Shown: positions 1,790 through 34,915 of the stretch, one piece after another
Layout: the number at the start of each line of letters is the position of its first letter
Position numbering within the stretch: position 1 is the stretch's first letter
From: a virus
Taxonomy: Duplodnaviria > Heunggongvirae > Uroviricota > Caudoviricetes
Strand: one strand, 5' to 3'
IMG/VR virus record: IMGVR_UViG_2718218361_000002
DNA: 36,421 nucleotides
Position numbers and translations under genes: made by a program
Notes under the pieces: model-generated
Seen by the model: the letters and a program-made list of their open reading frames with translations, nothing else
What the model was told of the DNA's origin: nothing
Database searches by the model: none

Positions 1790-1817
1790 TAAAAAATAAG
1801 CCCGTGTAAGGGAGATT
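1790..1817. repeat. attL core (duplicate of the cyaR 3' end)
   Basis: TAAAAAATAAGCCCGTGTAAGGGAGATT, identical to 34888..34915; flanking bases differ on both sides. Confidence 0.85.
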
Positions 1818-1896
1818 TAGGGTGTCACCAGTAGGGGCTTTCAACGGTACAATGCGGGTTTGAGCGGCATAAATTACCACTGAAAGCCCTTAAACG

Positions 1897-2910
1897 TTAC
1901 TCTACTGTGGACACTGTGTGGACACTCTCGGCTTCAGTACCACCTCTTAGCGGATTAAGAGAAATGGCGTCCTGAAGGTACTCTGGCGCAAAATGAGCGT
2001 AAACCATAGTTTGCTCAATCCGCGTGTGACCTAGTATCCGTTGTAGCGTGATAATACTTCCTCCATTAATCATGAAATGAGTGGCAAAGCTGTGCCTTAG
2101 TGCATGTGTGGCTTGCCCCGTTGGCAAATCCGGTTTTATTTCTTTCATTGTTCGTCTGAAGCGAGGGTAATCAGCATCAGGGAATAAAAAACCTCGTTTG
2201 TTATCCGCGATCATTTTGGCAACAGCCTCTGAGATCGGGACGGTGCGTGGTTTGTTTGTTTTCGTTTTAACAAACGTGACGCGGTTATGGATGATATTTT
2301 CTGCTTTCAAACGAGCTGCTTCTCCCCAACGTGCTCCTGTACTCAGGCAAAGAATCGCAATCTTTTTATTGTCGCCGTCAAGTGCTGCAAGCAGTAAGGC
2401 AATTTCTTCCTGTGTGAGATAGCCTGTTTCTGGTTTTTCCTCCTTAAGCCTCTTTGTCCCTCTGATAGGGTGCTCACCAAAGAATAACTCCGCTTCAATC
2501 AGGGCTGTAAACATGCCGCTAATACATGTTAAATCACGATTGATACTCGAAGGTTTAATACCCTGACTTCTTCGGGTGGCGCAGTACTGGCTGATAAGGG
2601 ATTTCGTGATTTGAAATGCGCATGGGTCATTCGTTATTTTTGTGAAGATTTCAATTTTTCCAAGATTAGATTTCCCATGCTCTTCGTGTTTACCCTTTAA
2701 ATCCCACCAGATCTGTGTCAGTTCCGACAGACGTCGTTTGTCTGTTGGTTTTGATAGCCATTCTTTATTGTGGTGGTTGTACAACGTGTATTTTTCGAAA
2801 GCGACAGCTTCGCTTTTCTTATCAAACTTCCTACGGATGCGTTTTCCGTTACGTCCAGTAGGGCGGATGTCCACTTCATATCGACCATCATCGAGTTTTT
2901 TGATTGCCAT
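1897..2910 (-). CDS. int: tyrosine integrase (P2 Int-like)
   Basis: 337-aa ORF; C-terminal HALRHSFATHF...LGHTRIEQTMVYAHF (R-H-R-Y catalytic pattern); immediately inside attL. Confidence 0.95.
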   Translation of the reverse strand: MAIKKLDDGRYEVDIRPTGRNGKRIRRKFDKKSEAVAFEKYTLYNHHNKEWLSKPTDKRRLSELTQIWWDLKGKHEEHGKSNLGKIEIFTKITNDPCAFQITKSLISQYCATRRSQGIKPSSINRDLTCISGMFTALIEAELFFGEHPIRGTKRLKEEKPETGYLTQEEIALLLAALDGDNKKIAILCLSTGARWGEAARLKAENIIHNRVTFVKTKTNKPRTVPISEAVAKMIADNKRGFLFPDADYPRFRRTMKEIKPDLPTGQATHALRHSFATHFMINGGSIITLQRILGHTRIEQTMVYAHFAPEYLQDAISLNPLRGGTEAESVHTVSTVE

Positions 2911-3025
2911 CAGAAAACCCTCCGAGTGGTACTTTTTTTTGCTACTACTAATCGCTTTTTTCGTGGTGGCTGAAATTTAGCCACCAATAGTAGACACTTG
3001 TGATGAATATATTCACGATAAATTG

Positions 3026-3325
3026 TTAACCAGTCTTTTGACCGGAGTGGGGCGACGTTGTTTCGTTTTGCCCAAAGTGTGCGAGAGCGGGCGCAATTTG
3101 CCCGGCTTCTGGAGCTACCTGATCAGTCATGAACCACAAAGTATATTTAGTAAATCTGGGATGTTGTAAGACCTTCATTATGGCTTCAACTCCAGCGTTT
3201 TTTGACCGGCTCTCATAGCTCGAAAGTGAGCTGTAGGCTACACCAGTTAATTCACTGAATTCTTTACGGTTTAACCTTTCAGATTCACGGATTAGCTTCA
3301 ACTTCTCCGAAACGTCTATTGACAT
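3026..3325 (-). CDS. C: immunity repressor C (HTH)
   Basis: ORF track 3026..3397; start chosen at internal ATG (plus-strand CAT 3323..3325), giving 99 aa; C-terminal TKYTLWFMT...QIAPALAHFGQNETTSPHSGQKTG as in P2 C; N-terminal DNA-binding part looks divergent. Confidence 0.8.
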   Translation of the reverse strand: MSIDVSEKLKLIRESERLNRKEFSELTGVAYSSLSSYESRSKNAGVEAIMKVLQHPRFTKYTLWFMTDQVAPEAGQIAPALAHFGQNETTSPHSGQKTG

Positions 3326-3402
3326 AATTACTCCGATTGCGTAATTTCTTGCTGATGGTGTGAAATGTTGTGCTTCTGGAGTTATCCTTTTAGGCAATAA
3401 TT

Positions 3403-3421
3403 AGCCATTAGGAGCCATTAG
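3403..3421. promoter_or_regulatory. candidate operator: tandem direct repeat AGCCATTAG x2, 10 bp centre to centre
   Basis: AGCCATTAG at 3403..3411 and 3413..3421 in the C-cox divergent intergenic region; P2-type repressors bind direct repeats at the early promoter. Confidence 0.4.
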
Positions 3422-3446
3422 AAGCACTAAGGGAGAATCGTAGCAG

Positions 3447-3722
3447 ATGAATAGACAGCTTGTAAGCGTGACTGATGCCGTGCCTTATCAGGAGTTTGCA
3501 AAACTCATTGGTAAAACTCCAAGAGCTGTAAGGGGTATGATTGAGAAAGGGAAATTACCAGTTATTGAGATTACTGACCCTCAGTCAGTATCGGGGCGTG
3601 CTGGTGAATATTGGGTATACCTTCCGGCATGGAATAACGGACTAAAACTGGCTTATGAAAGCCGTCCTAAAGAGATTCGTGACGGCTGGTTGATGTGGTT
3701 AGGTCTCGGTGAACCACGTTAA
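3447..3722 (+). CDS. cox: Cox excisionase / early-promoter repressor
   Basis: 91 aa; ...PYQEFAKLIGK...GKLPVI...GRAGEYWVYLPAWNNGLKLAYESRPKEIRDGWLMWLGLGEPR; SD AAGGGAGA upstream. Confidence 0.85.
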   Translation: MNRQLVSVTDAVPYQEFAKLIGKTPRAVRGMIEKGKLPVIEITDPQSVSGRAGEYWVYLPAWNNGLKLAYESRPKEIRDGWLMWLGLGEPR

Positions 3723-3732: not shown

Positions 3733-3903
3733 ATGAATGAGCCTCGTTGTATTGCTCAGTTATTGCGTAACGAAAGCCCCAGGGCGATTGACTTCACCAT
3801 CACCCACGGTAAGGGGCGTAAGGGAATCATTATCCGCACCAAAAAACAGAGTCCGTTAAAAAAGGCTCTGACCTTTCTGAAAAGCCGGAGGGTCTGGAAA
3901 TGA
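3733..3903 (+). CDS. small hypothetical protein (P2 orf78 position)
   Basis: ORF track 3709..3903; internal ATG 3733 is preceded by AAGGAG; basic 56-aa product. Confidence 0.45.
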   Translation: MNEPRCIAQLLRNESPRAIDFTITHGKGRKGIIIRTKKQSPLKKALTFLKSRRVWK

Positions 3904-4400
3904 CAGTGATGACGCTCAATCTCGTTGAAAAACAGCCAGCAGCTATGCGCCGGATAATTGGTAAGCATCTTGCCGTTCCTCGCTGGCAGGATACATGTGA
4001 TTATTATAATCAGATGATGGAGCGCGAACGGTTAACGGTTTGCTTCCATGCGCAGTTAAAACAGCGTCACGCAACGATGCGTTTTGAAGAAATGAACGAC
4101 GTCGAACGTGAACGGCTGGTTTGTGCAATTGATGAATTGCGTGGAGCATTCTCAAAACGCCGTCAGGTTGGCGCAAGTGAGTATGCATATATTAGTTTTT
4201 TAACAGTCAGTCAGCGTCGTACTTTATTTATGCATGCCGGATTGACTGAAAAAGAATTCAACCAGCCATACTGGCGAATTAATGAAGAATCATGTTACTG
4301 GCGTGATGCTTTATTCCGTGCATTACGTGAATTATTCAGCCTGTTTGAGTATGCACCGACAATTCTGACGTCGGTAAAACCAGAGCAATATCTGCATTAA
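3900..4400 (+). CDS. B: replication protein B (helicase-loader-like)
   Basis: 166 aa; MTVMTLNLVEKQPAAMRRIIGKHLAVPRWQ... matches recalled P2 gpB. Confidence 0.9.
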   Translation: MTVMTLNLVEKQPAAMRRIIGKHLAVPRWQDTCDYYNQMMERERLTVCFHAQLKQRHATMRFEEMNDVERERLVCAIDELRGAFSKRRQVGASEYAYISFLTVSQRRTLFMHAGLTEKEFNQPYWRINEESCYWRDALFRALRELFSLFEYAPTILTSVKPEQYLH

Positions 4401-4463
4401 ATAATTAACCAGAGTTTTTAACGCACTTAATCGTGCGGGGCTTCTTTTTGCCTGGAGAAAGTC

Positions 4464-4688
4464 ATGCATACAGTTTCTGAAAATCAGTGCGGTAAATACG
4501 CATTACTGCTGCAACAGGCCAGAACCGAAGCACAGGCTGACGCTGCGACGCGCTTTTCTTCTCATCTTGACACCATGATTCGCCACATCACAAAGGCGGA
4601 GTTATCCCGCGTGGAGATAGTCGAGCTGCTCAGTCAGGAGTCGGAAAAATTTCACAATATCGGATTGTCTCGCGGGGAGGTGCTTTGA
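4464..4688 (+). CDS. hypothetical early protein (P2 orf80 position)
   Basis: 74-aa ORF in the early operon, in synteny. Confidence 0.6.
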
Positions 4689-4990
4689 TGTCCTGTTCTC
4701 ATTCAGTTGTATTACTGAATAACGCCTTAAAAATCGCCGTTATGAAAAATGGCGATTTGTCTCTTATTCAACTTTGTCTTGATAAAGAAAAACGCGACAT
4801 CACTGAATCTGTTATCGCGATTTATCAGAATGAATTAAACCTCCTGTCTGATGTGGTCAATTTACTTGTTAAACGCGCTGTATTTCACAAGCAAATCTCC
4901 TCCGTGGATGAACTGACGAAATTAACGACAGAAATTGCCAGCTATTGCGCTGATGAATTTAAAAAACTTAACGACAAAAGGAGCTGGTAA
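4685..4990 (+). CDS. hypothetical early protein (P2 orf81 position)
   Basis: 101-aa ORF overlapping the upstream stop by 4 nt (coupled). Confidence 0.6.
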
Positions 4991-5214
4991 TGCCGGACAA
5001 CGTAGATTTTATTCAGGAACAACAGGCTGAATTACTGGAGCGTCAGATTAACGCGGCAAGGGTAAAACATTGCGGTGCTTCTGCGTTGGTTTGCGAAGAG
5101 TGTGACGCGCCAATACCTGCTGCCCGTCGTGCGGCTTATCCGTCAGCCACGCGTTGTGTTTCCTGCCAGTCAGTCTTTGAAGCAAAAAACAAACATTACC
5201 GGAGAACGGCATGA
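4990..5214 (+). CDS. DksA/TraR-type C4 zinc-finger protein (P2 orf82 position)
   Basis: 74 aa; C-x2-C...C-x2-C (CEECDAPIP...RCVSCQ). Confidence 0.65.
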   Translation: MPDNVDFIQEQQAELLERQINAARVKHCGASALVCEECDAPIPAARRAAYPSATRCVSCQSVFEAKNKHYRRTA

Positions 5215-5486
5215 GTATTCGTATTGAAATTGGCGAACGTTATGTCGTTACCAGTGACAGCTTTCAGTTTATTCTCCACGAGAAAAAGAGAGCGGAAAGC
5301 GGTAAAAACGCCGGTCAGGAATGGCTGGCGGTGGTTGGTTATTATCCGAAATTAAGCCAGCTCGTTTCCGGCCTGATGCATCACGATATTCTGACCGGAA
5401 GCGCAAAGTCTTTTGCTGATTTAAACGCGCAGGTTGAGCAACTCAGCAGGCGTTGTTCAGAGGCTTTTGGCTCATATGGCCGTTAA
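5211..5486 (+). CDS. hypothetical early protein (P2 orf83 position)
   Basis: 91-aa ORF, overlaps the A start. Confidence 0.6.
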   Translation: MSIRIEIGERYVVTSDSFQFILHEKKRAESGKNAGQEWLAVVGYYPKLSQLVSGLMHHDILTGSAKSFADLNAQVEQLSRRCSEAFGSYGR

Positions 5487-7752
5487 AGCCTCCGGGCGTT
5501 TTGTCCCTCCGTCAGCATTTGCCGCAGGCACCGGTAAGGCGTTTACCGGTGCTTATGCATGGAACGCGCCACGCGAGGCTGTCGGGCGCGAAAGACCCCT
5601 TACACGTGACGAGATGCGTCAGGTGCAAGGGGTTTTATCCACGATTAACCGTCTGCCTTACTTTTTGCGCTCGCTGTTTACTTCACGCTATGACTACATC
5701 CGGCGCAATAAAAGCCCGGTGCACGGGTTTTATTTCCTCACATCCACTTTTCAGCGTCGTTTATGGCCGCGCATTGAGCGTGTGAATCAGCGCCATGAAA
5801 TGAACACCGACGCGTCGTTGCTGTTTCTGGCAGAGCGCGACCAGTATGCGCGCCTGCCGGGGATGAATGACAAGGAGCTGAAAAAGTTTGCTGCCCGTAT
5901 CTCATCGCAGCTTTTCATGATGTATGAGGAACTCTGCGATGCCTGGGTGGATGCACATGGCGAAAAAGAATCGCTGTTTACGGATGAGGCGCAGGCTCAC
6001 CTCTATGGTCATGTTGCTGGCGCTGCACGTGCTTTCAATATTTCCCCGCTTTACTGGAAAAAATACCGTAAAGGGCAGATGACCACGAGGCAGGCATATT
6101 CTGCCATTGCCCGCCTGTTTAACGATGAGTGGTGGACTCATCAGCTTAAAGGCCAGCGTATGCGCTGGCATGAGGCGTTACTGATTGCTGTCGGGGAGGT
6201 CAATAAAGACCGTTCTCCTTATGCCAGTAAACATGCCATTCGTGATGTGCGTGCGCGCCGCCAGGCAAATCTGGAATTTCTTAAATCGTGTGACCTTGAA
6301 AACAGGGAAACCGGCGAGCGCATCGACCTTATCAGTAAGGTGATGGGCAGTATTTCTAATCCTGAAATTCGCCGGATGGAGCTGATGAACACCATTGCCG
6401 GTATTGAGCGTTACGCCGCCGCAGAGGGTGATGTGGGGATGTTTATCACGCTGACCGCGCCGTCAAAGTATCACCCGACACGTCAGGTCAGAAAAGGCGA
6501 AAGTAAAACCGTTCAGCTTAATCACGGCTGGAACGATGAGGCATTTAATCCAAAGGATGCGCAGCGTTATCTCTGCCGCATCTGGAGCCTGATGCGCACG
6601 GCATTCAAGGATAATGATTTACAGGTCTACGGTTTGCGTGTCGTCGAGCCACACCACGACGGAACGCCGCACTGGCATATGATGCTTTTTTGTAATCCAC
6701 GCCAGCGTAACCAGATTATTGAAATCATGCGTCGTTATGCGCTCAAAGAGGATGGCGACGAAAGAGGAGCCGCGCGAAACCGTTTTCAGGCAAAACACCT
6801 TAACCGGGGCGGTGCTGCGGGATATATCGCGAAATACATCTCAAAAAATATCGACGGCTATGCACTGGATGGTCAGCTCGATAACGATACCGGCAGACCG
6901 CTGAAAGACACTGCTGCGGCTGTTACCGCATGGGCGTCAACGTGGCGTATCCCGCAATTTAAAACGGTTGGCCTGCCGACAATGGGGGCTTACCGTGAAC
7001 TACGCAAACTGCCTCGCGGCGTCAGCATTGCTGATGAGTTTGACGAACGCGTCGAGGCTGTACGCGCCGCCGCAGACAGTGGTGATTTTGCGTTGTATAT
7101 CAGCGCGCAGGGTGGGGCAAATGTCCCGCGCGATTGTCAGACTGTCAGGGTTGCCCGTAGCCCGTCGGATGACGTTAACGAGTACGAGGAAGAAGTCGAG
7201 AGAGTGGTCGGCATTTACGCACCGCATCTCGGCGCGCGTCATATTCATATCACCAGAACCACGGACTGGCGCATTGTGCCGAAAGTGCCGGTCGTTGAGC
7301 CTTTGACTTTAAAAAGCGGCATCGCCGCGCCTCGGAGTCCTGTCAATAACTGTGGAAAGCTCACCGGTGGTGATACTTCGTTACCGGCTCCCACACCTTC
7401 TGAGCGCGCCGCAGCCGTGCTTAATCTGGTTGATGACGGTGTTATCGAATGGAATGACCCGGAGGTCGTGAGGGCGCTCAGGGGCGCATTAAAACACGGC
7501 CTGAGAACACCAAACCGTCAGCAAAGAAACGGAAGCCCGTTAAAACCGAATGAAATAGCGCCATCGGCCAGGCTGACCCGGTCGGAGCGTATGCAAATTA
7601 CCCGTATCCGTGTTGACCTTGCTCAGAACGGCATCTGGCCTCAGCGATGGGAACTTGAGGCGCTGGCGCGTGGAGCAACCGTAAATTATGACGGAAAAAA
7701 ATTCACGTATCTGGTCGCTGATGTGTGGCCGGGGTTCTCGTTACCCATTTGA
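5476..7752 (+). CDS. A: replication initiation protein A (rolling-circle nickase)
   Basis: ORF track 5434..7752; start placed at ATG 5476 (MAVKASGRFVPP...); ~758 aa; contains HWHMMLF (HUH-type motif) and tyrosine-rich GYIAKYISKNIDGY. Confidence 0.9.
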   Translation: MAVKASGRFVPPSAFAAGTGKAFTGAYAWNAPREAVGRERPLTRDEMRQVQGVLSTINRLPYFLRSLFTSRYDYIRRNKSPVHGFYFLTSTFQRRLWPRIERVNQRHEMNTDASLLFLAERDQYARLPGMNDKELKKFAARISSQLFMMYEELCDAWVDAHGEKESLFTDEAQAHLYGHVAGAARAFNISPLYWKKYRKGQMTTRQAYSAIARLFNDEWWTHQLKGQRMRWHEALLIAVGEVNKDRSPYASKHAIRDVRARRQANLEFLKSCDLENRETGERIDLISKVMGSISNPEIRRMELMNTIAGIERYAAAEGDVGMFITLTAPSKYHPTRQVRKGESKTVQLNHGWNDEAFNPKDAQRYLCRIWSLMRTAFKDNDLQVYGLRVVEPHHDGTPHWHMMLFCNPRQRNQIIEIMRRYALKEDGDERGAARNRFQAKHLNRGGAAGYIAKYISKNIDGYALDGQLDNDTGRPLKDTAAAVTAWASTWRIPQFKTVGLPTMGAYRELRKLPRGVSIADEFDERVEAVRAAADSGDFALYISAQGGANVPRDCQTVRVARSPSDDVNEYEEEVERVVGIYAPHLGARHIHITRTTDWRIVPKVPVVEPLTLKSGIAAPRSPVNNCGKLTGGDTSLPAPTPSERAAAVLNLVDDGVIEWNDPEVVRALRGALKHGLRTPNRQQRNGSPLKPNEIAPSARLTRSERMQITRIRVDLAQNGIWPQRWELEALARGATVNYDGKKFTYLVADVWPGFSLPI

Positions 7753-8012
7753 GTAAAAACACAACGTGATTTGATATGGCATTGAATGGCTTATGCGGAG
7801 CAGTTATGGGGCAGCAGAAGGTCAATAGCATGCTGAATTAGAAGGCTAAATGCTATTGAGTGACTAGCATGTCGGTAAGGACAGCCGTTTGATCCGGGTC
7901 ATAAAAGGCCATCCATTTAGTCTAATAAAATCATTGCGGGTAACCTTATGTCGACGCATAATTCGTCTTGAGCGAAGTCTTGTCAGTCTTTCATCGTATT
8001 GATGATGGGCGC

Positions 8013-8042
8013 AAAAAAACCACCCTGGCAGGTGGTTTTTTT
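8013..8042. terminator. bidirectional rho-independent terminator
   Basis: AAAAAAA-CCACC-ctggca-GGTGG-TTTTTTT; A-run upstream and T-run downstream. Confidence 0.7.
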
Positions 8043-8054
8043 GTTTGAAGCATA

Positions 8055-8168
8055 TTAAAGCATAATGCTGACATTGATATTACTGACGTTTACTGACAAA
8101 CCACTCGGACTACCGTTTGGATAGCCAAAGAGGGCCAGAACGAGAATGCAGTAATAGCATTTCTTCAT
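8055..8168 (-). CDS. small hydrophobic peptide (37 aa), candidate membrane peptide
   Basis: MKKCYYCILVLALFGYPNGSPSGLSVNVSNINVSIML; AGGAGG SD 5 nt before the ATG (plus-strand CAT 8166..8168); ends just before terminator 8013..8042; longer 88-aa reading exists but lacks an RBS. Confidence 0.3.
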   Translation of the reverse strand: MKKCYYCILVLALFGYPNGSPSGLSVNVSNINVSIML

Positions 8169-8646
8169 ATTGCCTCCTGTAAGTAGAGGGCAACTTCCAC
8201 CGGTATATGCGCTTGTTAGGTGGAATGACTTTTGAGCGAAGTCTTGCCCTGAAATAATGCTCTGTTTAAACGCAAAGTGATTTGGCATATCACCGAACAG
8301 AGAGCCGGAAAAACACAACATATAGTATGTCGTTGTTTCTAGACATACATTCTATGTTGTGTAACAAGGGCTTTGCATTAAACATGTTTGAGATTTTATT
8401 GATGTAGCTCAAAGTAAAAAACAGAGACTACGGATGATAAGGTCTTGAAAGCAATGTAAATTTTTTAAAGTTGCCAATTGCTTAAAAATGTACAGTTGCG
8501 GTATGGCGTACTTAAAAAGCTATGCATGCAACAAGTGAATGTTTTTGCATGCGCTGGGGATGTCCGTTCAGGCTGCGTGCGGTCAGGACTGGTGCGGATC
8601 CATAGTATCTATGCAACTGCATTAAAACCGCCCCGTGAAGCGGGCG

Positions 8647-8665
8647 GGCGAGGCGGGGAAAGCAC
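8647..8665. other. cos site (19-nt cohesive-end sequence)
   Basis: GGCGAGGCGGGGAAAGCAC, which I recall as the P2 cohesive-end sequence, in a GC-rich island inside AT-rich DNA. Confidence 0.7.
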
Positions 8666-8916
8666 CGCGCTCATGCAATGTGAAAATGTAATACCGATAG
8701 ACTTACCGTTTCAGAGTTAGGATGTTCATCATATTGAAGTAACATACGAGAGATTCAGCAGAGCGCAACAAGTTTGAGAAAACAGTCCATATATCTTAAC
8801 CTATTAGGACTGACGGAAAATGAAGCACTATTCTTCGTGGTTATTTAGTATAGTATTGACTTTTCAACACGATCAATGGTTTGATCAGTTCGTATGTAAT
8901 TGATTAAGGAAACTCA

Positions 8917-10915: not shown

Positions 10916-10924
10916 AATCCTGCA

Positions 10925-10958
10925 ATTATTAGCCCCGGCAAATGCTAGGGCTAATTAT
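10925..10958. terminator. imperfect hairpin between convergent genes (weak terminator candidate)
   Basis: ATTAGCCC...GGGCTAAT 8-bp stem with 12-nt loop between the partner-gene stop and the Q stop; no clean T-run. Confidence 0.3.
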
Positions 10959-10973
10959 CATCTAAATATTGGG

Positions 10974-25852: not shown

Positions 25853-25853
25853 T

Positions 25854-26671: not shown

Positions 26672-27898
26672 ATGTTACAGTTCAGCTTTGTATCAAATGA
26701 CGTTGTTATGACTTACGACGGTGACAGCGGAGAACAAATAATTTGGGTTTGGGAGAGTTTAAATAAATTTCAAACAGTATGCATTTCACGCATTTTTAAC
26801 TTTCAACTCCAGGACTTGAGAAACCCACCGTCAACCGTTCAGGATTTTAATGATTATGAATATTCCTTTAATTTTGGCACGCTTAATAATGAATACATAA
26901 CAGTTCCGGGACGGATTCTAAGCATTAATCGAGATGTCCTTATACATAAGTCCATCAAGCTTGAAAGGAAAGTATTTGCGTCAGAACGCAACGTCTCCAT
27001 TTTTGGTCGGCTTTCAAAACTACTCGATCACACTAATCCCATCATCATCGGAGGAGATAAGCCGGAAGCTATACCAAAAAGCGTATTCCAGGAGTTGCAA
27101 AGTAAATTCCCCAACACAGGGGAACTGGATCGCTATGCTAATGCAAGGGTTCACGCTATTCTCGCAGGTTATCTTGATGGTATGAAAGATGCTCGCGAAC
27201 GGTATGAACATTACCTAAACAGAAAAACAGTGATCAGAAAAACCGACAAACTGGATTTAGAAGTTTTAAATAAGCTCGAAATTGAGAAATATACACTCAT
27301 AAGAGACATTATCCAGGATGCGTTGAATAACAAAACTAACTTGTCTGAAGATGACTGGCAGAGCCTGATGATACCCTTCATCACATTACTTTTTCCAAAA
27401 TATATCAAGGTCCTCGAGAAGGTTAAAATTTTCGACTATTACTCTAATCCTTCGGCTAAAACAAATCGGTTTATAGACATTGCACTGGTGGATGCAAACG
27501 GCAACCTTGATATCATCGAAGTCAAAAAGCCGTTTGATGATAAGATCCTTCGCAAGACGCCCTATCGCGACAACTATATTCCTACATCAGAACTTAGCGG
27601 CGGTATTATGCAGGCTGAAAAGTATATTTTTCATTTATCTAAATGGGGTGTTAAGGGTGAAAAAGAGCTTACGAATGCCTACAAGAATTCTCTGCCAGCG
27701 GGAATGTGTATTCGTATATCTAACCCAAAAGCCATCATCATTGTCGGGCGCGATCAGATAGCGAACGGTAACATGACCGACGGTCAGTTGCTTGATTTTG
27801 AGATAATCAAACGTAAGTACGCCAACATGATAGACATATTGACGTACGACGACCTGTTGCGTCGACTTAATAATACGATTGAAGCATTGAAAGGTTGA
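26672..27898 (+). CDS. PD-(D/E)xK nuclease-like protein, Shedu/DUF4263-like candidate (accessory gene at the G-FI locus, P2 Z/fun position)
   Basis: 408 aa; SD GAGGAA; C-terminal half has RFIDIALVDANGNLDIIEVKKP (D...D...ExK) followed by AIIIVGRD; AT-rich. Confidence 0.8.
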   Translation: MLQFSFVSNDVVMTYDGDSGEQIIWVWESLNKFQTVCISRIFNFQLQDLRNPPSTVQDFNDYEYSFNFGTLNNEYITVPGRILSINRDVLIHKSIKLERKVFASERNVSIFGRLSKLLDHTNPIIIGGDKPEAIPKSVFQELQSKFPNTGELDRYANARVHAILAGYLDGMKDARERYEHYLNRKTVIRKTDKLDLEVLNKLEIEKYTLIRDIIQDALNNKTNLSEDDWQSLMIPFITLLFPKYIKVLEKVKIFDYYSNPSAKTNRFIDIALVDANGNLDIIEVKKPFDDKILRKTPYRDNYIPTSELSGGIMQAEKYIFHLSKWGVKGEKELTNAYKNSLPAGMCIRISNPKAIIIVGRDQIANGNMTDGQLLDFEIIKRKYANMIDILTYDDLLRRLNNTIEALKG

Positions 27899-27967
27899 AT
27901 GTCCATGAGGTTCACACCCACAACGGGGAGCAGGTCACTTCCTATTGTTTGATTGACATACCATAAC

Positions 27968-28057: not shown

Positions 28058-28088
28058 ACGGGCGGGCGAGTTGCCCGCCTTTTCTTTA
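28058..28088 (+). terminator. rho-independent terminator
   Basis: GGCGGGC-gagtt-GCCCGCC followed by TTTTCTTT. Confidence 0.7.
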
Positions 28089-28184
28089 ATCTGTTGTTTC
28101 ATCCACTGACCAGCCAGGTCAAATAGCGTCTCATGCTCTGCACAACAGAAAATAGTTGCACCCATTAACCACGGAGTTAAACGG

Positions 28185-29375
28185 ATGAGCGACTATCATC
28201 ATGGCGTGCAGGTGCTGGAGATTAACGACGGCACCCGCGTCATTTCCACCGTATCCACGGCCATTGTCGGCATGGTCTGCACGGCCAGCGATGCGGATGC
28301 GGAAATCTTCCCCCTCAATAAACCGGTACTGATTACCAATGTGCAGAGCGCAATTGCAAAGGCTGGTAAAAAAGGCACGCTGGCGGCATCGTTGCAGGCC
28401 ATCGCCGACCAGTCAAAACCGGTCACCGTTGTCGTACGTGTGGAAGACGGCACCGGCGACGACGAGGAAACGAAACTCGCGCAGACCGTTTCCAATATCA
28501 TCGGCACCACCGACGAAAACGGTCAGTACACCGGACTGAAAGCCCTGCTGGCGGCGGAGTCGGTAACCGGTGTTAAACCGCGTATTCTCGGCGTGCCGGG
28601 ACTGGATACCAAAGAGGTGGCTGTTGCACTGGCATCAGTCTGTCAGAAGCTGCGCGCTTTCGGGTATATCAGCGCATGGGGCTGTAAAACCATTTCCGAG
28701 GTGAAAGCCTACCGTCAGAATTTCAGCCAGCGTGAGCTGATGGTCATCTGGCCGGATTTCCTCGCATGGGATACGGTCACCAGTACCACCGCCACCGCGT
28801 ATGCCACCGCCCGTGCGCTGGGGCTGCGCGCTAAAATCGACCAGGAGCAGGGCTGGCATAAAACGCTGTCCAATGTCGGGGTGAACGGTGTTACCGGCAT
28901 CAGCGCCTCTGTATTCTGGGATTTGCAGGAGTCCGGTACTGATGCTGACCTGCTTAACGAGTCAGGCGTCACAACGCTGATTCGCCGTGACGGTTTCCGC
29001 TTCTGGGGTAACCGTACCTGCTCTGATGACCCGCTGTTCCTCTTTGAAAACTACACCCGCACCGCGCAGGTGCTGGCCGACACGATGGCTGAGGCGCACA
29101 TGTGGGCGGTGGACAAGCCCATCACTGCAACGCTGATTCGCGACATCGTTGACGGTATTAATGCCAAATTCCGTGAGCTGAAAACAAACGGCTATATCGT
29201 GGATGCGACCTGCTGGTTCAGCGAAGAATCCAACGATGCGCAAACCCTCAAGGCCGGAAAACTGTATATCGACTACGACTATACCCCGGTGCCTCCTCTT
29301 GAAAACCTGACCCTGCGCCAGCGTATTACCGATAAATACCTGGCAAATCTGGTCACCTCGGTTAACAGCAATTAA
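28185..29375 (+). CDS. FI: tail sheath protein
   Basis: 396 aa; MSDYHHGVQVLEINDGTRVISTV... Confidence 0.95.
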   Translation: MSDYHHGVQVLEINDGTRVISTVSTAIVGMVCTASDADAEIFPLNKPVLITNVQSAIAKAGKKGTLAASLQAIADQSKPVTVVVRVEDGTGDDEETKLAQTVSNIIGTTDENGQYTGLKALLAAESVTGVKPRILGVPGLDTKEVAVALASVCQKLRAFGYISAWGCKTISEVKAYRQNFSQRELMVIWPDFLAWDTVTSTTATAYATARALGLRAKIDQEQGWHKTLSNVGVNGVTGISASVFWDLQESGTDADLLNESGVTTLIRRDGFRFWGNRTCSDDPLFLFENYTRTAQVLADTMAEAHMWAVDKPITATLIRDIVDGINAKFRELKTNGYIVDATCWFSEESNDAQTLKAGKLYIDYDYTPVPPLENLTLRQRITDKYLANLVTSVNSN

Positions 29376-29387
29376 GGAGCCTGACCG

Positions 29388-29906
29388 ATGGCAATGCCGC
29401 GCAAACTCAAGTTAATGAACGTCTTTCTGAACGGCTACAGCTATCAGGGCGTTGCAAAGTCCGTCACGCTGCCAAAACTGACCCGTAAGCTTGAAAACTA
29501 TCGCGGTGCGGGGATGAACGGCAGCGCACCGGTAGACCTCGGCCTTGATGACGATGCGCTGTCAATGGAGTGGTCGCTCGGGGGCTTCCCGGATTCGGTT
29601 ATCTGGGAGCTTTACGCCGCAACCGGTGTGGATGCCGTGCCGATTCGTTTTGCCGGCTCTTACCAGCGCGACGATACCGGCGAAACGGTGGCCGTCGAGG
29701 TGGTCATGCGTGGCCGTCAGAAAGAAATCGACACCGGCGAGGGGAAACAGGGAGAAGATACCGAGTCGAAAATCTCCGTGGTCTGCACCTATTTCCGGCT
29801 GACGATGGATGGTAAGGAGCTGGTCGAAATTGACACCATCAACATGATTGAGAAGGTGAACGGCGTCGACCGGCTGGAGCAACACCGCCGCAATATCGGC
29901 CTGTGA
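29388..29906 (+). CDS. FII: tail tube protein
   Basis: 172 aa; SD AAGGAG. Confidence 0.95.
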   Translation: MAMPRKLKLMNVFLNGYSYQGVAKSVTLPKLTRKLENYRGAGMNGSAPVDLGLDDDALSMEWSLGGFPDSVIWELYAATGVDAVPIRFAGSYQRDDTGETVAVEVVMRGRQKEIDTGEGKQGEDTESKISVVCTYFRLTMDGKELVEIDTINMIEKVNGVDRLEQHRRNIGL

Positions 29907-29962
29907 TTTTCATCCGGTCAGCCAGGCTGACCGGTTAACCCCGATTCAGAAGTGAGAAAACC

Positions 29963-30238
29963 ATGAACAAAGAAAATGTCATTACCCTGGACAATCCGGT
30001 CAAACGTGGTGAGCAGGTTATCGAACAGGTCACGCTGATGAAACCCAATGCCGGGACGCTGCGCGGTGTCAGTCTGGCAGCGGTCGCGAACTCTGAAGTC
30101 GATGCACTGATTAAGGTGCTGCCGCGCATGACGGCACCGATGCTGACCGAGCAGGAAGTCGCCGCGCTGGAACTGCCTGACCTTGTGGCGCTGGCCGGTA
30201 AGGTGGTCGGTTTTTTGTCGCCGAACTCGGTGCAGTGA
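29963..30238 (+). CDS. E: tail assembly chaperone E (E+E' by -1 frameshift, extension to 30390)
   Basis: 91 aa ending VGFLSPNSVQ; slippery GGTTTTTTG near the 3' end; -1 frame stays open to TAA at 30388..30390. Confidence 0.9.
   Translation: MNKENVITLDNPVKRGEQVIEQVTLMKPNAGTLRGVSLAAVANSEVDALIKVLPRMTAPMLTEQEVAALELPDLVALAGKVVGFLSPNSVQ
30209..30217 (+). promoter_or_regulatory. programmed -1 ribosomal frameshift site (E/E')
   Basis: GGTTTTTTG heptamer-type slippery run; -1 frame adds ~58 codons ending at the start of T. Confidence 0.7.
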
Positions 30239-30382
30239 CGTTTCCGAAAAATCTGTCGGTCGATGACCTGATGGCGGATGTGGCAGTGATATTTCACTGG
30301 CCGCCATCAGAACTGTATCCCATGAGCCTGACCGAACTCATCACATGGCGCGAAAAGGCGCTCCGGCGAAGCGGAAACACGA

Positions 30383-32830
30383 ATGAGTAACAATGTAAAA
30401 TTACAGGTATTGCTCAGGGCTGTTGACCAGGCATCCCGCCCGTTTAAATCCATCCGCACAGCGAGCAAATCGCTGTCGGGGGATATCCGGGAAACACAAA
30501 AATCACTGCGCGAGCTGAACGGTCAGGCATCCCGTATTGAGGGATTCCGCAAGACCAGTACACAGCTCGCCGTGACTGGTCATGCACTTGAAAAGGCTCG
30601 GCAGGAGGCCGAAGCCCTTGCCACACAGTTTAAAAATACCGAACGTCCGACCCGTGCTCAGGCGAAAGTGCTGGAATCCGCAAAGCGTGCGGCGGAGGAC
30701 TTACAGGCGAAATATAACCGCCTGACGGATTCCGTTAAACGCCAGCAGCGGGAACTGGCCGCTGTGGGAATTAATACCCGCAATCTTGCACATGATGAGC
30801 AGGGACTGAAAAACCGTATCAGTGAAACCACCGCACAGCTTAACCGTCAGCGTGACGCACTGGCGCGTGTCAGTGCACAACAGGCAAAACTTAACGCAGT
30901 AAAACAGCGTTATCAGGCCGGAAAGGAACTGGCCGGAAATATGGCCTCAGTGGGCGCTGCCGGTGTGGGGATTGCGGCGGCGGGAACGATGGCCGGAGTT
31001 AAGTTGCTGATGCCCGGTTATGAGTTTGCGCAGAAAAACTCAGAATTGCAGGCTGTGCTCGGTGTGGCAAAAGACTCCGCCGAAATGACCGCACTACGCA
31101 AACAGGCGCGCCAGCTCGGCGACAATACCGCCGCCTCAGCGGATGATGCGGCCGGTGCACAGATAATCATCGCGAAAGCGGGTGGGGATGTTGATGCCAT
31201 TCAGGCGGCAACGCCGGTCACGCTGAATATGGCGCTGGCGAACCGCCGCACGATGGAAGAAAACGCCGCCCTGCTGATGGGGATGAAATCCGCCTTTCAG
31301 CTTTCAAACGATAAGGTCGCTCATATCGGGGATGTTCTCTCCATGACGATGAACAAAACCGCCGCCGATTTTGACGGCATGAGCGATGCGCTGACCTATG
31401 CCGCACCTGTGGCAAAAAATGCCGGTGTCAGCATTGAAGAAACCGCCGCAATGGTCGGGGCGCTGCATGATGCAAAAATCACAGGCTCAATGGCGGGGAC
31501 GGGAAGCCGTGCCGTGTTAAGCCGTCTGCAGGCACCGACGGGAAAAGCATGGGATGCACTCAAAGAGCTTGGCGTGAAAACCTCAGACAGTAAGGGGAAT
31601 ACCCGACCAGTATTTACCATTCTGAAAGAAATGCAGGCCAGTTTTGAGAAAAACCGGCTCGGTACTGCCCAGCAGGCTGAATACATGAAAACTATTTTCG
31701 GGGAGGAGGCCAGCTCAGCCGCCGCCGTGCTGATGACTGCCGCCTCAACTGGAAAGCTGGACAAACTGACCGCTGCGTTTAAAGCCTCAGACGGGAAGAC
31801 TGCCGAGCTGGTAAATATCATGCAGGACAACCTCGGCGGTGACTTTAAGGAGTTTCAGTCCGCTTATGAGGCGGTGGGGACTGACCTGTTTGACCAGCAG
31901 GAAGGCGCACTGCGTAAGCTCACGCAGACGGCCACAAAGTATGTGTTAAAACTCGACGGCTGGATCCAGAAAAACAAATCACTGGCGTCAACCATCGGCA
32001 TTATTGCCGGTGGTGTACTGGCGCTGACTGGCATCATTGGTGCCATTGGCCTCGTAGCCTGGCCGGTTATCACCGGCATCAATGCCATCATCGCGGCAGC
32101 AGGCGCAATGGGGGCAATCTTCACGACGGTTGGCAGTGCTGTTATGACGGCCATCGGGGCGATTAGCTGGCCGGTTGTGGCCGTGGTGGCCGCCATTGTC
32201 GCCGGGGCGTTGCTTATCCGTAAATACTGGGAGCCTGTCAGCGCATTCTTTGGCGGTGTGGTGGAAGGGCTGAAAGCGGCATTTGCGCCGGTGGGGGAAC
32301 TGTTCACGCCACTTAAACCGGTGTTTGACTGGCTGGGTGAAAAGTTACAGGCCGCGTGGCAGTGGTTTAAAAACCTGATTGCCCCGGTCAAAGCCACCCA
32401 GGACACCCTGAACCGTTGCCGTGACACGGGCGTCATGTTCGGGCAGGCACTGGCTGACGCGCTGATGCTGCCGCTTAATGCGTTCAACAAACTGCGCAGT
32501 GGTATTGACTGGGTACTGGAAAAACTCGGTGTCATCAACAAAGAGTCAGACACACTTGACCAGACCGCCGCAAGGACTAATGCCGCCACGTATGGCACCG
32601 GTGGTTATATTCCGGCGACCAGCTCTTATGCAGGCTATCAGGCTTATCAGCCGGTCACGGCACCGGCTGGCCGCTCTTATGTGGACCAGAGTAAAAACGA
32701 ATATCACATCAGCCTGACCGGTGGTACTGCGCCGGGGACACAGCTTGACCGCCAGTTACAGGATGCGCTCGAAAAATACGAGCGGGATAAACGTGCGCGC
32801 GCCCGTGCCAGCATGATGCATGACGGTTAA
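30383..32830 (+). CDS. T: tail tape measure protein
   Basis: 815 aa; coiled-coil N-terminal half, Gly/Ala-rich hydrophobic middle. Confidence 0.95.
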   Translation: MSNNVKLQVLLRAVDQASRPFKSIRTASKSLSGDIRETQKSLRELNGQASRIEGFRKTSTQLAVTGHALEKARQEAEALATQFKNTERPTRAQAKVLESAKRAAEDLQAKYNRLTDSVKRQQRELAAVGINTRNLAHDEQGLKNRISETTAQLNRQRDALARVSAQQAKLNAVKQRYQAGKELAGNMASVGAAGVGIAAAGTMAGVKLLMPGYEFAQKNSELQAVLGVAKDSAEMTALRKQARQLGDNTAASADDAAGAQIIIAKAGGDVDAIQAATPVTLNMALANRRTMEENAALLMGMKSAFQLSNDKVAHIGDVLSMTMNKTAADFDGMSDALTYAAPVAKNAGVSIEETAAMVGALHDAKITGSMAGTGSRAVLSRLQAPTGKAWDALKELGVKTSDSKGNTRPVFTILKEMQASFEKNRLGTAQQAEYMKTIFGEEASSAAAVLMTAASTGKLDKLTAAFKASDGKTAELVNIMQDNLGGDFKEFQSAYEAVGTDLFDQQEGALRKLTQTATKYVLKLDGWIQKNKSLASTIGIIAGGVLALTGIIGAIGLVAWPVITGINAIIAAAGAMGAIFTTVGSAVMTAIGAISWPVVAVVAAIVAGALLIRKYWEPVSAFFGGVVEGLKAAFAPVGELFTPLKPVFDWLGEKLQAAWQWFKNLIAPVKATQDTLNRCRDTGVMFGQALADALMLPLNAFNKLRSGIDWVLEKLGVINKESDTLDQTAARTNAATYGTGGYIPATSSYAGYQAYQPVTAPAGRSYVDQSKNEYHISLTGGTAPGTQLDRQLQDALEKYERDKRARARASMMHDG

Positions 32831-32844
32831 GGAGGTGACGAAAA

Positions 32845-33324
32845 ATGATGCTCGCGTTAGGTATGTTTGTTTTTATGCGCCAGACGCTGCCACACCAGAC
32901 CATGCAGCGTGAATCAGATTATCGCTGGCCGTCAAATTCCCGTATCGGTAAACGGGATGCCTACCAGTTTCTCGGTGTGGGTGAGGAAAACATCACGCTT
33001 GCCGGCGTGCTTTATCCCGAACTGACCGGCGGCAAGCTGACGATGACCACGCTCAGGCTGATGGCAGAGGAAGGCCGGGCGTGGCCGTTGCTGGATGGCA
33101 CCGGCATGATTTACGGCATGTATGTCATCAGCAGGGTGAATGAAACAGGGAGTATTTTCTTTGCAGACGGCACACCCCGGAAAATTGATTTTACGCTGTC
33201 GCTCACCCGCGTTGATGAATCACTGGCCGCGCTTTATGGCGATATCGGTAAACAGGCGGAATCGCTCATCGGTAAGGCTGGCAGTATGGCGACTAAATTC
33301 ACGGGTATGACGGGGGCGGGATAA
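32845..33324 (+). CDS. U: tail protein U
   Basis: 159 aa, synteny. Confidence 0.9.
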   Translation: MMLALGMFVFMRQTLPHQTMQRESDYRWPSNSRIGKRDAYQFLGVGEENITLAGVLYPELTGGKLTMTTLRLMAEEGRAWPLLDGTGMIYGMYVISRVNETGSIFFADGTPRKIDFTLSLTRVDESLAALYGDIGKQAESLIGKAGSMATKFTGMTGAG

Positions 33325-34487
33325 TGCTGGATGCGCTGACATTTGATGCAGGCAGTACGCTGACGCCGGATTACATGCTGATGCTCGACAGCAGGGATAT
33401 TACCGGCAATATCAGCGACCGTCTGATGAGCATGACCCTGACGGATAACCGGGGCTTTGAGGCTGACCAGCTTGATATTGAACTGAACGATGCCGACGGG
33501 CAGGTCGGGCTGCCGGTTCGTGGCGCTGTCCTGACGGTGTATATCGGCTGGAAAGGTTTTGCCCTGGTATGCAAAGGGAAATTCACCGTTGATGAGGTTG
33601 AACACCGGGGCGCGCCGGATGTGGTTACCATCCGCGCCCGGAGTGCAGATTTTCGCGGGACGCTCAATTCCCGCCGTGAAGGCTCATGGCATGACACCAC
33701 GCTCGGTGCGATTGTTGAGGCGATAGCCTCCCGTAACAAGCTGGAAGCCAGTGTCGCGCCGTCACTGGACGGAATTAAAATCCCGCACATCGACCAGTCG
33801 CAGGAGTCTGATGCGAAATTCCTGACCCGCCTTGCTGAACGCAACGGCGGTGAGGTGTCGGTAAAAATGGGAAAACTGCTGTTTCTCAAAGCGGGGCAGG
33901 GGGTGACGGCCAGCGGTAAAAAAATCCCGCAGATTACCATCACCCGCAGCGACGGCGACCGTCATCATTTTGCGATTGCTGACCGTGGAGCTTACACCGG
34001 CGTAACGGCAAAGTGGTTACACACCAAAGACCCGAAGCCGCAAAAGCAGAAGGTAAAACTGAAACGCAAAAAGAAAGAAAAACACCTGCGCGCACTGGAG
34101 CACCCGAAAGCGAAACCGGTCACGCAGAAGAAAGCGCCAAAAGTACCGGAAGCGCGCGAAGGTGAATACATGGCCGGTGAGGCTGACAACGTTTTTGCCC
34201 TGACCACGGTATATGCCACGAAAGCGCAGGCCATGCGCGCCGCTCAGGCGAAGTGGGATAAACTGCAACGGGGCGTAGCGGAGTTCTCCATCAGCCTGGC
34301 TACCGGTCGGGCAGATATTTACACGGAAACACCGGTTAAAGTGTCAGGCTTTAAGCGCGTCATAGACGAGCAGGACTGGACAATCACTAAGGTGACACAT
34401 TTTCTGAATAACAGCGGCTTCACGACGTCCTTGGAGCTTGAGGTCAGGCTTTCTGATGTGGAGTACGAAACAGAAGATGATGAGTGA
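33324..34487 (+). CDS. D: tail protein D
   Basis: 387 aa, synteny. Confidence 0.9.
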   Translation: MLDALTFDAGSTLTPDYMLMLDSRDITGNISDRLMSMTLTDNRGFEADQLDIELNDADGQVGLPVRGAVLTVYIGWKGFALVCKGKFTVDEVEHRGAPDVVTIRARSADFRGTLNSRREGSWHDTTLGAIVEAIASRNKLEASVAPSLDGIKIPHIDQSQESDAKFLTRLAERNGGEVSVKMGKLLFLKAGQGVTASGKKIPQITITRSDGDRHHFAIADRGAYTGVTAKWLHTKDPKPQKQKVKLKRKKKEKHLRALEHPKAKPVTQKKAPKVPEAREGEYMAGEADNVFALTTVYATKAQAMRAAQAKWDKLQRGVAEFSISLATGRADIYTETPVKVSGFKRVIDEQDWTITKVTHFLNNSGFTTSLELEVRLSDVEYETEDDE

Positions 34488-34568
34488 TGTTTTGTTTTTA
34501 TCTGTTTGTTTTATAAGGGTAAATTAACTAAAATGGCACCATCAACAAAACCGGAAGAGGTGCTCGCG

Positions 34569-34787
34569 ATGTTTCATTGTCCTTTATGCCAGCATGCCGC
34601 ACATGCGCGTACAAGTCGCTATATCACTGACACGACAAAAGAGCGTTATCACCAGTGTCAGAACGTGAATTGCAGCGCCACGTTCATCACTTATGAGTCG
34701 GTACAGAGATACATCGTGAAGCCGGGAGAAGTCCACGCCGTGAGGCCGCACCCGTTGCCGTCAGGGCAGCAAATTATGTGGATGTAA
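34569..34787 (+). CDS. ogr: late-gene transcription activator Ogr (zinc finger)
   Basis: ORF track 34506..34787; start at ATG 34569 (MFHCPLCQHAAHARTSRY...CQNVNCSATF); 72 aa. Confidence 0.9.
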   Translation: MFHCPLCQHAAHARTSRYITDTTKERYHQCQNVNCSATFITYESVQRYIVKPGEVHAVRPHPLPSGQQIMWM

Positions 34788-34798
34788 TTACAAACAGG

Positions 34799-34824
34799 AA
34801 GCCCCTCAGTCGAGGGGCTTTTTT
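34799..34824 (+). terminator. rho-independent terminator after ogr
   Basis: GCCCCTC-agtc-GAGGGGC followed by TTTTTT. Confidence 0.8.
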
Positions 34825-34887
34825 GTCGATGTGGTCAATGTGTGGACGTGACCAGAAATAAATCCTTTTATTTCATTGTATTACGCG

Positions 34888-34915
34888 TAAAAAATAAGCC
34901 CGTGTAAGGGAGATT
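34888..34915. repeat. attR core (lies in the 3' terminator end of cyaR)
   Basis: TAAAAAATAAGCCCGTGTAAGGGAGATT, identical to 1790..1817. Confidence 0.85.

Follow-up and report, generated by a model that had tools for sequence, protein, structure and literature searches.

A P2-type prophage with three cargo cassettes at the cyaR attachment site of Escherichia coli

P2-like prophages at cyaR are common, and the arrangement found here is of a familiar, well-understood type. Three variable regions of P2-like phages have been described (PMC3091744), as have their defence hotspots (PMC9122126, PMC9519451, PMC13586616). The stretch of DNA analysed here (the window; 36,421 nucleotides, IMG/VR record IMGVR_UViG_2718218361_000002) is identical in sequence to E. 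coli S21 (NZ_CP010230.1) and contains a repeat-bracketed element of 33,098 bp. By sequence comparison the element is very probably a temperate phage of P2 type (genus Peduovirus), complete and integrated at the cyaR att core.

Relatives and the cyaR attachment site

The prophage and phage P2 (AF063097/NC_001895) have in common the gene order, attP core, ori, cos core, frameshift site and Ogr; the defence cassette, however, lies on the Q side of cos here and on the A side in P2. Phage Wphi (NC_005056) likewise combines a P2-like backbone with a repressor differing from that of P2, but it carries other cargo and no gene between S and V. Its Int (~50% identical) and C (~49% identical) led to rejection of Wphi as the identity of the prophage. 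E. coli W and its derivatives (NC_017664) contain, at the same site and with the same flank, a P2-like prophage whose sequence is 98.2% identical over 90% of window positions 1-23726, with a 99.7% identical PD-T4-4 cassette; the match is split into two pieces that together span 90% of the query, so some of the cargo differs.

In E. coli K-12 the same chromosomal site is occupied by the cryptic prophage PR-X (ogrK and the yegZ pseudogene). The D'-ogr-attR-cyaR-yegQ segment of K-12 is 99.2% identical to the window; on the yegS-yegR side the match is 97.5% identical and extends 18 nt into the att core, such that K-12 aligns to positions 1-1808 and 34275-36421. This alignment indicates that PR-X is the type of prophage found here with 1809-34274 deleted, the endpoints being inside the attL core and inside gene D. 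Both annotation and alignment therefore support the statement, made in a preliminary description of this DNA, that the K-12 locus holds only a P2 remnant (ogrK/yegZ).

The same description had the element bounded by a perfect 28-bp direct repeat and inserted at the 3' end of cyaR between yegR and yegQ. A repeat search of the window confirmed the repeat (TAAAAAATAAGCCCGTGTAAGGGAGATT; coordinates of all features are in Table 1), for which ~9e-9 exact 28-mer repeats would be expected by chance in 36 kb, and both copies contain the 27-nt attP core of P2 (AF063097 24356-24382) without a mismatch. The P' arm adjoins attL and the P arm adjoins attR. The location also agrees with the Rfam match to CyaR (RF00112), which is full length (100.7 bits, model positions 1-85 of 85), and with RefSeq, in which the flanking genes of the identical sequence in S21 are named yegS, yegR and yegQ (trhP). 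By the Rfam placement, the attR core makes up the 3' half of the cyaR terminator. A copy of the att core stands at each end of the element, and cyaR is regenerated unchanged. No tRNA genes were found in the window, so integration was not into a tRNA. The cyaR site is presumably the preferred P2 site locI of the classical literature.

A reconstructed empty site of 803 nt is present as one uninterrupted piece (97-100% identity) in many genomes, and it is contiguous in each single-piece genome among the matches listed. The flank next to attL that resembles the P arm also occurs in these unoccupied genomes. At least 80% of the empty site is covered in 4562 of 5426 complete genomes, a count that takes in small remnants such as that of K-12, and its two halves lie apart in roughly 16% of complete E. 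coli genomes.

Table 1 Features of the window (positions in nucleotides from its first letter).
Feature	Position	Strand	Details and basis
yegS (lipid kinase), chromosomal flank	1-900	-	cut by window edge; RefSeq of identical S21
yegR, chromosomal flank	1315-1632	+	RefSeq of S21; K-12 homologue
attB flank resembling P arm of P2 attP	1730-1789		16-nt gap; repeat search and alignment
attL	1790-1817		28-bp repeat including 27-nt P2 att core (1791-1817)
Cox-binding region and Int P' arm sites	1834-1931		100% identical to P2
int	1897-2910	-	337 aa; 2 substitutions relative to P2 Int (99.4% identical)
C immunity repressor	3026-3325	-	99 aa; 65% identical to P2 C; phrog_147
cox	3447-3722	+	91 aa; 84% identical to P2 Cox
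Early operon (orf78, B, orf80-83, A)	3733-7752	+	
A	5476-7752	+	758 aa; active-site tyrosines YIAKY
Unannotated conserved module next to cos	7934-8440		
Putative sRNA	~7968-8047	+	predicted
Bidirectional terminator	8011-8045		
37-aa hydrophobic ORF	8168-8055	-	
cos region	8612-8670		block common to P2 and P4
PD-T4-4 defence cassette	8917-10915	+	island of ~33% GC
PD-T4-4 A	8917-10350	+	ATPase; Walker A GKNNTGKT, Walker B ILMIDE
PD-T4-4 B	10343-10915	+	putative PD-(D/E)XK nuclease; D...DLK motif
Q portal and P large terminase	10974-13774	-	342 aa and 590 aa
Divergent late promoters pP/pO	13775-13947		Ogr site; 172/173 identical to P2
O operon (O, N, M, L, X, Y, K, lysA, lysB, lysC, R, S)	13948-20148	+	all full length
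Uncharacterised 357-aa protein, orf30 slot	20251-21324	-	all-helical; ~36% GC
pV promoter region	21325-21410	+	replaced
V operon (V, W, J, I, H, G)	21411-26381	+	V 209 aa; H 673 aa
Shedu nuclease SduA, Z/fun slot	26672-27898	+	408 aa
pF late promoter	28076-28184	+	Wphi type
F operon (FI, FII, E, E+E', T, U, D)	28185-34487	+	
ogr late activator	34569-34787	+	72 aa; 100% identical to P2 Ogr
Int P arm and IHF site	34826-34890		P arm 28/28 identical to P2; IHF site 29/34
attR	34888-34915		28-bp repeat including att core (34889-34915)
cyaR sRNA gene, complete	34892-34977	-	3' half of terminator within attR core; Rfam
yegQ (trhP), chromosomal flank	35060-36421	-	RefSeq of S21; K-12

Backbone genes, immunity region and cis-acting sites

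Searches with all 42 P2 proteins (tblastn) placed the backbone proteins at full length, ungapped and in P2 order, with the exception of H, which is mosaic, and of the ends of A, Q and V, which differ from P2 over short stretches at the cassette borders. Apart from C, cox and H, the backbone proteins are 92-100% identical to those of P2. The gene order int-C-cox-B-A / Q-P / O-S / V-G / FI-D-ogr was recovered both by these searches and by whole-genome blastn, which upholds the earlier claim that all P2 backbone genes are present in canonical order. The alignment to P2 that the preliminary description had called for gave ~97% nucleotide identity (blastn); the P2 backbone genes contain no stops or frameshifts. 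Other cargo takes the place of orf30, fun(Z), tin, old and orf91, the accessory genes of P2, none of which was found by tblastn with the P2 proteins. Decay in the form of IS elements, deletions or pseudogenes is not visible, and in S21, where the sequence is identical, RefSeq flags no pseudogene inside the prophage. The circularised genome would be 33.1 kb, compared with 33.6 kb for P2.

The immunity repressor C is diverged from that of P2 in its N-terminal half and identical to it in its C-terminal third, and the divergence suggests an immunity different from that of P2. Operators for the diverged repressor were looked for and none was identified. In H it is the C-terminal third, the tail-fibre tip, that is unlike both P2 and Wphi. 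The changed repressor and the three cargo cassettes were absent from the preliminary description.

Most cis-acting sites are those of P2. The Cox sites (74/74), the P' arm (27/27), the ori nick region (7304-7364; 61/61) and the region of the E/E' slippery site (~30209-30218; 41/41) are identical, and the E+E' product of -1 frameshifting (142 aa) contains one substitution. The Int, IHF and Cox sites required for excision are all present, and the promoter and terminator of ogr are conserved. At cos, the 19-nt cohesive-end sequence (8647-8665) matches P2 exactly, and a block of ~55-60 bp is common to both P2 and P4. Beyond +5 the Q side of cos differs from the P2 sequence; the common block should be sufficient because P2 terminase packages P4. 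The late promoter pF is nearly identical to pF of the sequenced phage Wphi.

Cargo cassettes and a module beside cos

Three AT-rich cassettes fill the TO, orf30 and Z slots, which are the classical variable positions of P2 and correspond to the defence hotspots of P2-like phages. All three are lysogenic-conversion cargo. The exact combination was found in 2 of 5426 complete genomes (S21 and H14).

The TO cassette was identified with PADLOC profiles as PD-T4-4 (A, 2e-112; adjacent B, 1e-15). The Z cassette encodes SduA (PADLOC, 1e-219; Pfam SduA_C (DUF4263), 3e-33), which is near-identical over its full length to the structurally solved E. coli Shedu (PDB 8ps4; 915 bits). PD-T4-4 and Shedu together are expected to defend the lysogen against other phages. 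The orf30 slot encodes a 357-aa protein with two predicted transmembrane helices, which belongs to the family phrog_9373 and has no assigned function or defence annotation. Homologues are found divergent from V in prophages of Kosakonia, Yersinia and Pectobacterium, and the family is also present in cargo regions of unrelated mobile elements. The protein may take part in exclusion or abortive infection, and its family could represent a new single-gene, membrane-acting system of one of these kinds.

The conserved module next to cos looks like a candidate type I toxin-antitoxin. Its 37-aa ORF has a GGAGG Shine-Dalgarno sequence and is conserved with synonymous changes, and the 5' end of the putative sRNA is complementary to the 5' UTR of the ORF (8231-8247). 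This complementarity is perfect over 13-15 nt and kept in 28 variants, and the predicted duplex of sRNA and mRNA (-30 kcal/mol) was reached by none of 1000 shuffles. The module is found at 29 loci in IMG/VR, in all of which the pairing core is invariant and shows no covariation. Rfam searches of the module returned sub-threshold noise only and no family; an extended frame of 88 aa had no match in a collection with one genome per species, and a full-text literature search found no paper on the 37-aa peptide. Together, the ORF and the sRNA could make up a type I toxin-antitoxin not described before, with a role in stabilising or protecting P2-like prophages. That at least one of the 357-aa protein and this module is a new functional class in P2-like phages we regard as possible but less likely than not.

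Late promoters, life cycle and significance

The preliminary description called the prophage apparently intact. This is shown for the ORFs and most cis sites, on which intactness was judged (sequence by itself gives no verdict on missense changes), but the pV promoter has been replaced. Together with the first ~12 codons of V, pV came with the cargo cassette, and it matches no sequenced phage: megablast and distant blastn against 50,697 deposited phage records gave no match to the region. The prophage might be cryptic, in that it looks intact but does not complete a lytic cycle, either because the replaced pV is deaf to Ogr and the V-G genes for baseplate and tail fibres stay silent or through a missense change or operator mismatch. 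Consistent with this are the restriction of the pV region and V N-terminus to the cassette, the occurrence of the exact element in only two complete genomes, and the lack of the strict pattern TGT-N12-ACA from the late promoters, pV region included (6 matches were found, against 9 expected by chance). The annotated P2 sites at pO, pF and pV, however, also deviate from the strict consensus, and for this reason a comparison anchored by position was used instead. It revealed a TGT-N11-CCA element (21344-21360) that starts 67 nt upstream of the V ATG, close to the -64 to -65 at which the corresponding TGT lies in P2, Wphi and the prophages of Kosakonia and Yersinia; by its position and loose motif, this element is a plausible candidate activator site. 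Furthermore, the cassette of orf30 slot and pV is found in P2-like prophages of 60 complete genomes, homologous cargo occupies the same divergent position in the other genera, and the open ORFs, high backbone identity and lack of visible decay described above all argue against a cryptic prophage, which we consider unlikely.

A domesticated P2-derived structure (a tailocin or fixed defence island) whose terminal repeat is incidental would accord with the known domestication of P2-type tail clusters in some bacteria and with three cassettes of host-beneficial cargo, but the head, packaging and integration modules are all complete and effectively refute it: portal, terminase, scaffold, capsid, cos, ori, int, cox and the two att arms are each present in P2-like form. 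That the repeat is the exact attP core, and that many genomes have the empty site, also speaks against it.

As a complete temperate phage, the element would follow the life cycle of P2. The integrase would insert the phage into the att core common with the 3' end of cyaR, and in the lysogen the C repressor would, from established P2 biology, shut off Pe. After derepression, Cox, Int and IHF would excise the circle, A would nick ori for rolling-circle replication, Ogr would activate the four late promoters and terminase would cut at cos. While integrated, PD-T4-4 (as ATPase and nuclease) and Shedu (as a nuclease sensing DNA ends) would be the cargo guarding the lysogen. P2-type prophages are not SOS-inducible, which qualifies the induction experiment suggested in the preliminary description.

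All three cargo slots have already been described, as have two of the systems they hold, and the finding matters little in itself. The prophage provides a clean full-length reference for PR-X of K-12, showing the exact deletion behind that remnant, and shows the E. coli Shedu of known structure within the phage that naturally carries it. It also offers two inexpensive targets for follow-up, the membrane protein of the orf30 slot and the candidate toxin-antitoxin beside cos.

Attachment site, chromosomal setting and the K-12 remnant

The P2-like prophage (1790-34915) is bounded by a 28-bp direct repeat, TAAAAAATAAGCCCGTGTAAGGGAGATT, found twice in the window, where ~9e-9 exact 28-mers would be expected by chance. 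The copies are exact, as the preliminary description had stated, and 27 nt of each (1791-1817 and 34889-34915) match without a difference the 27-nt attP core annotated in P2 (AF063097, 24356-24382). A search of Rfam identified a complete cyaR (CyaR, RF00112, 100.7 bits, model positions 1-85 of 85), the single family reaching its gathering threshold in the window; it lies on the minus strand at 34892-34977, so the right-hand repeat copy makes up the 3' half of its terminator. No tRNA genes were found in the window.

The window corresponds to the reverse complement of E. coli S21 (NZ_CP010230.1, 1638504-1674924), with 0 mismatches in 36,322 positions compared, and strain H14 is identical to it across the first 25 kb. 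The RefSeq annotation of S21 gives yegS, yegR and yegQ as the flanking genes and flags no pseudogenes between the flanks. The Rfam match and these flanks bear out the proposed location at the 3' end of cyaR, between yegR and yegQ. Just past the window in the S21 chromosome (36425-37019 of locus L002), adjoining yegQ, is a RelE/ParE-ParD type II toxin-antitoxin pair. Its place is the yegQ-yegP interval, for which K-12 has no gene annotated.

An empty site, reconstructed by joining 1400-1817 to 34916-35300, was searched for in 5426 complete genomes and found as a single uninterrupted piece in many. At least 80% of it was covered in 4562 genomes, a count that includes small remnants like that of K-12, and its halves are apart in the remaining ~16%. 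The site is reportedly one preferred by P2, with a remnant present there in K-12 (work attributed to Barreiro and Haggard-Ljungquist in 1992). Immediately to the left of attB, the chromosomal sequence at 1730-1789 is similar to the P2 attP P arm (TCGATGTGGTCAATG...GTGACCAG, with a 16-nt gap); it is also present in unoccupied E. coli genomes and may be left over from a far earlier integration.

The corresponding interval of MG1655 contains cyaR and the 629-bp 'cryptic prophage PR-X' (ogrK and a yegZ pseudogene), followed by yegR and yegS, in agreement with the earlier statement that K-12 carries only a cryptic ogrK/yegZ remnant at this locus. K-12 aligns with window positions 1-1808 (97.5%) and 34275-36421 (99.2%). 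The two alignments overlap by 3 nt at the junction, where the K-12 sequence (locus L003) reads AAAAAAATAAGCCCGTGTA followed by GCAGAG. PR-X is thus a prophage of this kind that, judged from these alignments, has undergone a single deletion of 1809-34274, with one end point in the attL core and the other in gene D.

Backbone genes and control sites

P2 was the best match of 1790-26789 in a megablast search of 50,697 phage records (97.0% identity, 77% of the query). Local blastn against P2 rotated at attP gave collinear blocks of 88-98% identity, broken at 7740-10989, 20154-21446, 25136-25807 and 26470-27964. With all 42 annotated P2 proteins as tblastn queries, all backbone proteins were recovered in P2 order and at full length, without gaps except in H, and none has an internal stop; C, Cox and H are the divergent ones. 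The reading of a complete P2 backbone in canonical order, free of frameshifts and premature stops, held on alignment to P2. A keeps the YIAKY tyrosine pair (450/454). P2 orf30, fun(Z), tin, old and orf91 were absent in the same search. The circularised genome would be 33,098 bp, compared with 33,593 bp for P2.

Features of the prophage and their comparison with P2
Feature	Position	Strand	Observation
attL	1790-1817		
C	3026-3325	minus	65% identical to P2 C (tblastn)
15-nt direct repeat TTGAGCGAAGTCTTG	7968-7982 and 8232-8246		
Bidirectional terminator	8011-8045		strong
37-aa hydrophobic ORF MKKCYYCILVLALFGYPNGSPSGLSVNVSNINVSIML	8168..8055	minus	GGAGG Shine-Dalgarno
19-nt cohesive-end sequence	8647-8665		single occurrence
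PD-T4-4 (TO region)	8917-10915		
357-aa protein (orf30 slot)	20251-21324	minus	
cyaR	34892-34977	minus	
attR	34888-34915		
Int			99.4% identical to P2 Int; 2 residues differ
Cox			84% identical to P2 Cox (tblastn)
B, orf78, orf80-83			all present (tblastn)
A			aligned residues 1-755 of 761 (tblastn)
Q			aligned residues 1-342 of 344 (tblastn)
P, O, N, M, L, X, Y, K, lysA, lysB, lysC, R, S			complete (tblastn)
V			aligned from residue 5 (tblastn)
W, J, I, G			complete (tblastn)
H			67% identical to P2 H, gapped (tblastn)
FI, FII, E, T, U, D			complete (tblastn)
Ogr			100% identical to P2 Ogr (tblastn)
Int P arm			28/28 vs P2
Int P' arm			27/27 vs P2
Cox-binding region			74/74 vs P2
IHF site			29/34 vs P2
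ori nick region			61/61 vs P2
pP/pO intergenic region			172/173 vs P2
ogr promoter			70/72 vs P2
ogr terminator			23/23 vs P2
E/E' slippery region			41/41 vs P2

A simulated -1 frameshift gives an E+E' product of 142 aa with one substitution. The window, P2 and the satellite P4 have in common a block around cos that reaches ~35 nt towards A and 5 nt towards Q; the 5 nt after cos towards Q have the P4 form (CGCGC) instead of the P2 form (TGCGC). Since the P2 terminase packages P4, this shared block is the sequence that matters for recognition, and here it is intact.

The late promoter pF matches that of P2 at only 88/116 positions but is nearly identical to that of the P2-like phage Wphi. The one uncertain element among the cis-acting sites is pV. 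P2-like sequence restarts only at 21447, 36 nt within V, and therefore pV and the first ~12 codons of V arrived with the cargo cassette; 21325-21446, which covers both, has no match in the 50,697 deposited phage records, even at distant sensitivity. A TGT...(A/C)CA element starts at -65 from the V ATG in P2, Wphi and a Kosakonia prophage, and at -64 in a Yersinia prophage. The candidate here, TGT-N11-CCA, starts at -67, about where P2 and Wphi have their activator sites, and the annotated pO and pF sites of P2 are likewise TGT-N12-CCA. The pV promoter is taken to be probably functional.

Repressor, tail fibre and cargo

The hybrid C repressor diverges from P2 C over residues 1 to ~57 and is almost identical to it over ~58-99; with Wphi C it shares only 49% identity. 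Judged by P2 C, the divergent N-terminal half would be the DNA-binding part. Immunity is probably different from that of both P2 and Wphi, although the integrase and site are those of P2. The C-terminal third of H (25136-25807) is unrelated to H of P2 or Wphi, while G is still 92% identical to P2 G, which probably reflects a swap in receptor specificity.

Three AT-rich islands (32-41% GC, compared with ~55-60% in the late-gene backbone) occupy all three of the classical variable regions of P2-like phages (TO, orf30 and Z; PMC3091744). Of the three cargo systems, two are known. The TO region encodes PD-T4-4 (PADLOC; protein A, 2e-112; protein B, 1e-15), a system discovered through functional selection (PMC9519451) and of a class that combines a P-loop NTPase with a PD-(D/E)XK nuclease (bioRxiv 10.1101/2025.07.10.664194). 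Protein A has AAA_15/AAA_21 domains with Walker A (GKNNTGKT) and Walker B (ILMIDE) motifs, and protein B has a D...DLK motif. PD-T4-4 is carried in the cos-Q interval (8647-10973), where the packaged genome has its left end, whereas old and tin of P2 lie between A and cos. The Z region encodes Shedu SduA (PADLOC, 1e-219; Pfam SduA_C), which is equivalent to PD-T4-8 (bioRxiv 10.1101/2025.07.10.664194). It is essentially identical over its full length (915 bits) to PDB 8ps4, presumably the tetrameric nuclease sensing DNA ends that is described in bioRxiv 10.1101/2023.08.10.552762.

The gene in the orf30 slot was called by PGAP as 347 aa, and its homologues point to 357 aa. The protein is all-helical with two predicted transmembrane helices (phrog_9373); Pfam, PADLOC and NCBIfam gave no match to it, and no fold match was specific. 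In P2-like prophages of Kosakonia, Yersinia and Pectobacterium the corresponding slot is taken by homologues, which are also found within cargo regions of other mobile elements.

A candidate module beside cos and the proposed life cycle

Between the end of A (7752) and cos is an interval of ~0.9 kb with no annotated gene in S21, which is 86-90% identical to two other Peduovirus genomes. It contains the 37-aa hydrophobic ORF, which is conserved with synonymous changes, is present on at least 1000 contigs and has a hypothetical-protein annotation in both Salmonella phage MET_P1_103_31 and E. coli W. The peptide sequence was not found in a full-text search of the literature, and no Rfam family matches the module (7934-8440). 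The first copy of TTGAGCGAAGTCTTG lies just 3' of a conserved plus-strand promoter-like sequence (TTGCGG-17-CATAAT) and 5' of the terminator, and therefore a plus-strand RNA of ~80 nt (~7968-8047) could be made. The 5' end of this putative sRNA is complementary to the 5' UTR of the ORF mRNA, 65-79 nt upstream of the ATG. Folds were predicted for both RNAs (z = -3.85 for the sRNA and -5.8 for the mRNA), and the 5' 22 nt of the sRNA form a predicted 17-bp duplex with the UTR at -30 kcal/mol (shuffles, -14.8 +/- 2.2), a value reached by 0/1000 shuffles. Perfect complementarity of 13-15 nt is kept at the same positions in all 28 distinct IMG/VR variants; the pairing core never varies, so covariation cannot be assessed. 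The layout resembles that of type I toxin-antitoxin pairs, for example tisB/istR-1 or zorO/orzO, and the module is put forward only as a candidate of that kind.

Sequence comparison established the structure of an integrated P2-type genome in which the att sites and genes are intact, as are most control sites. Going by what is established for P2, C would repress Pe in the lysogen and the prophage would not be SOS-inducible; the RefSeq annotation of the S21 prophage lists no 186-type tum antirepressor. After derepression, Cox, Int and IHF would excise the genome, A would nick ori, Ogr would activate pP, pO, pV and pF, and the terminase would cut at cos. The cargo cassettes would act in the lysogen against other phages.

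The preliminary description was correct in both observation and interpretation. The element is an ordinary P2-like prophage, already sequenced and automatically annotated, at a known attachment site, and its cargo sits in known hotspots. Some novelty attaches to two leads only, namely the uncharacterised membrane protein encoded in the orf30 slot and the module beside cos that resembles a toxin-antitoxin.
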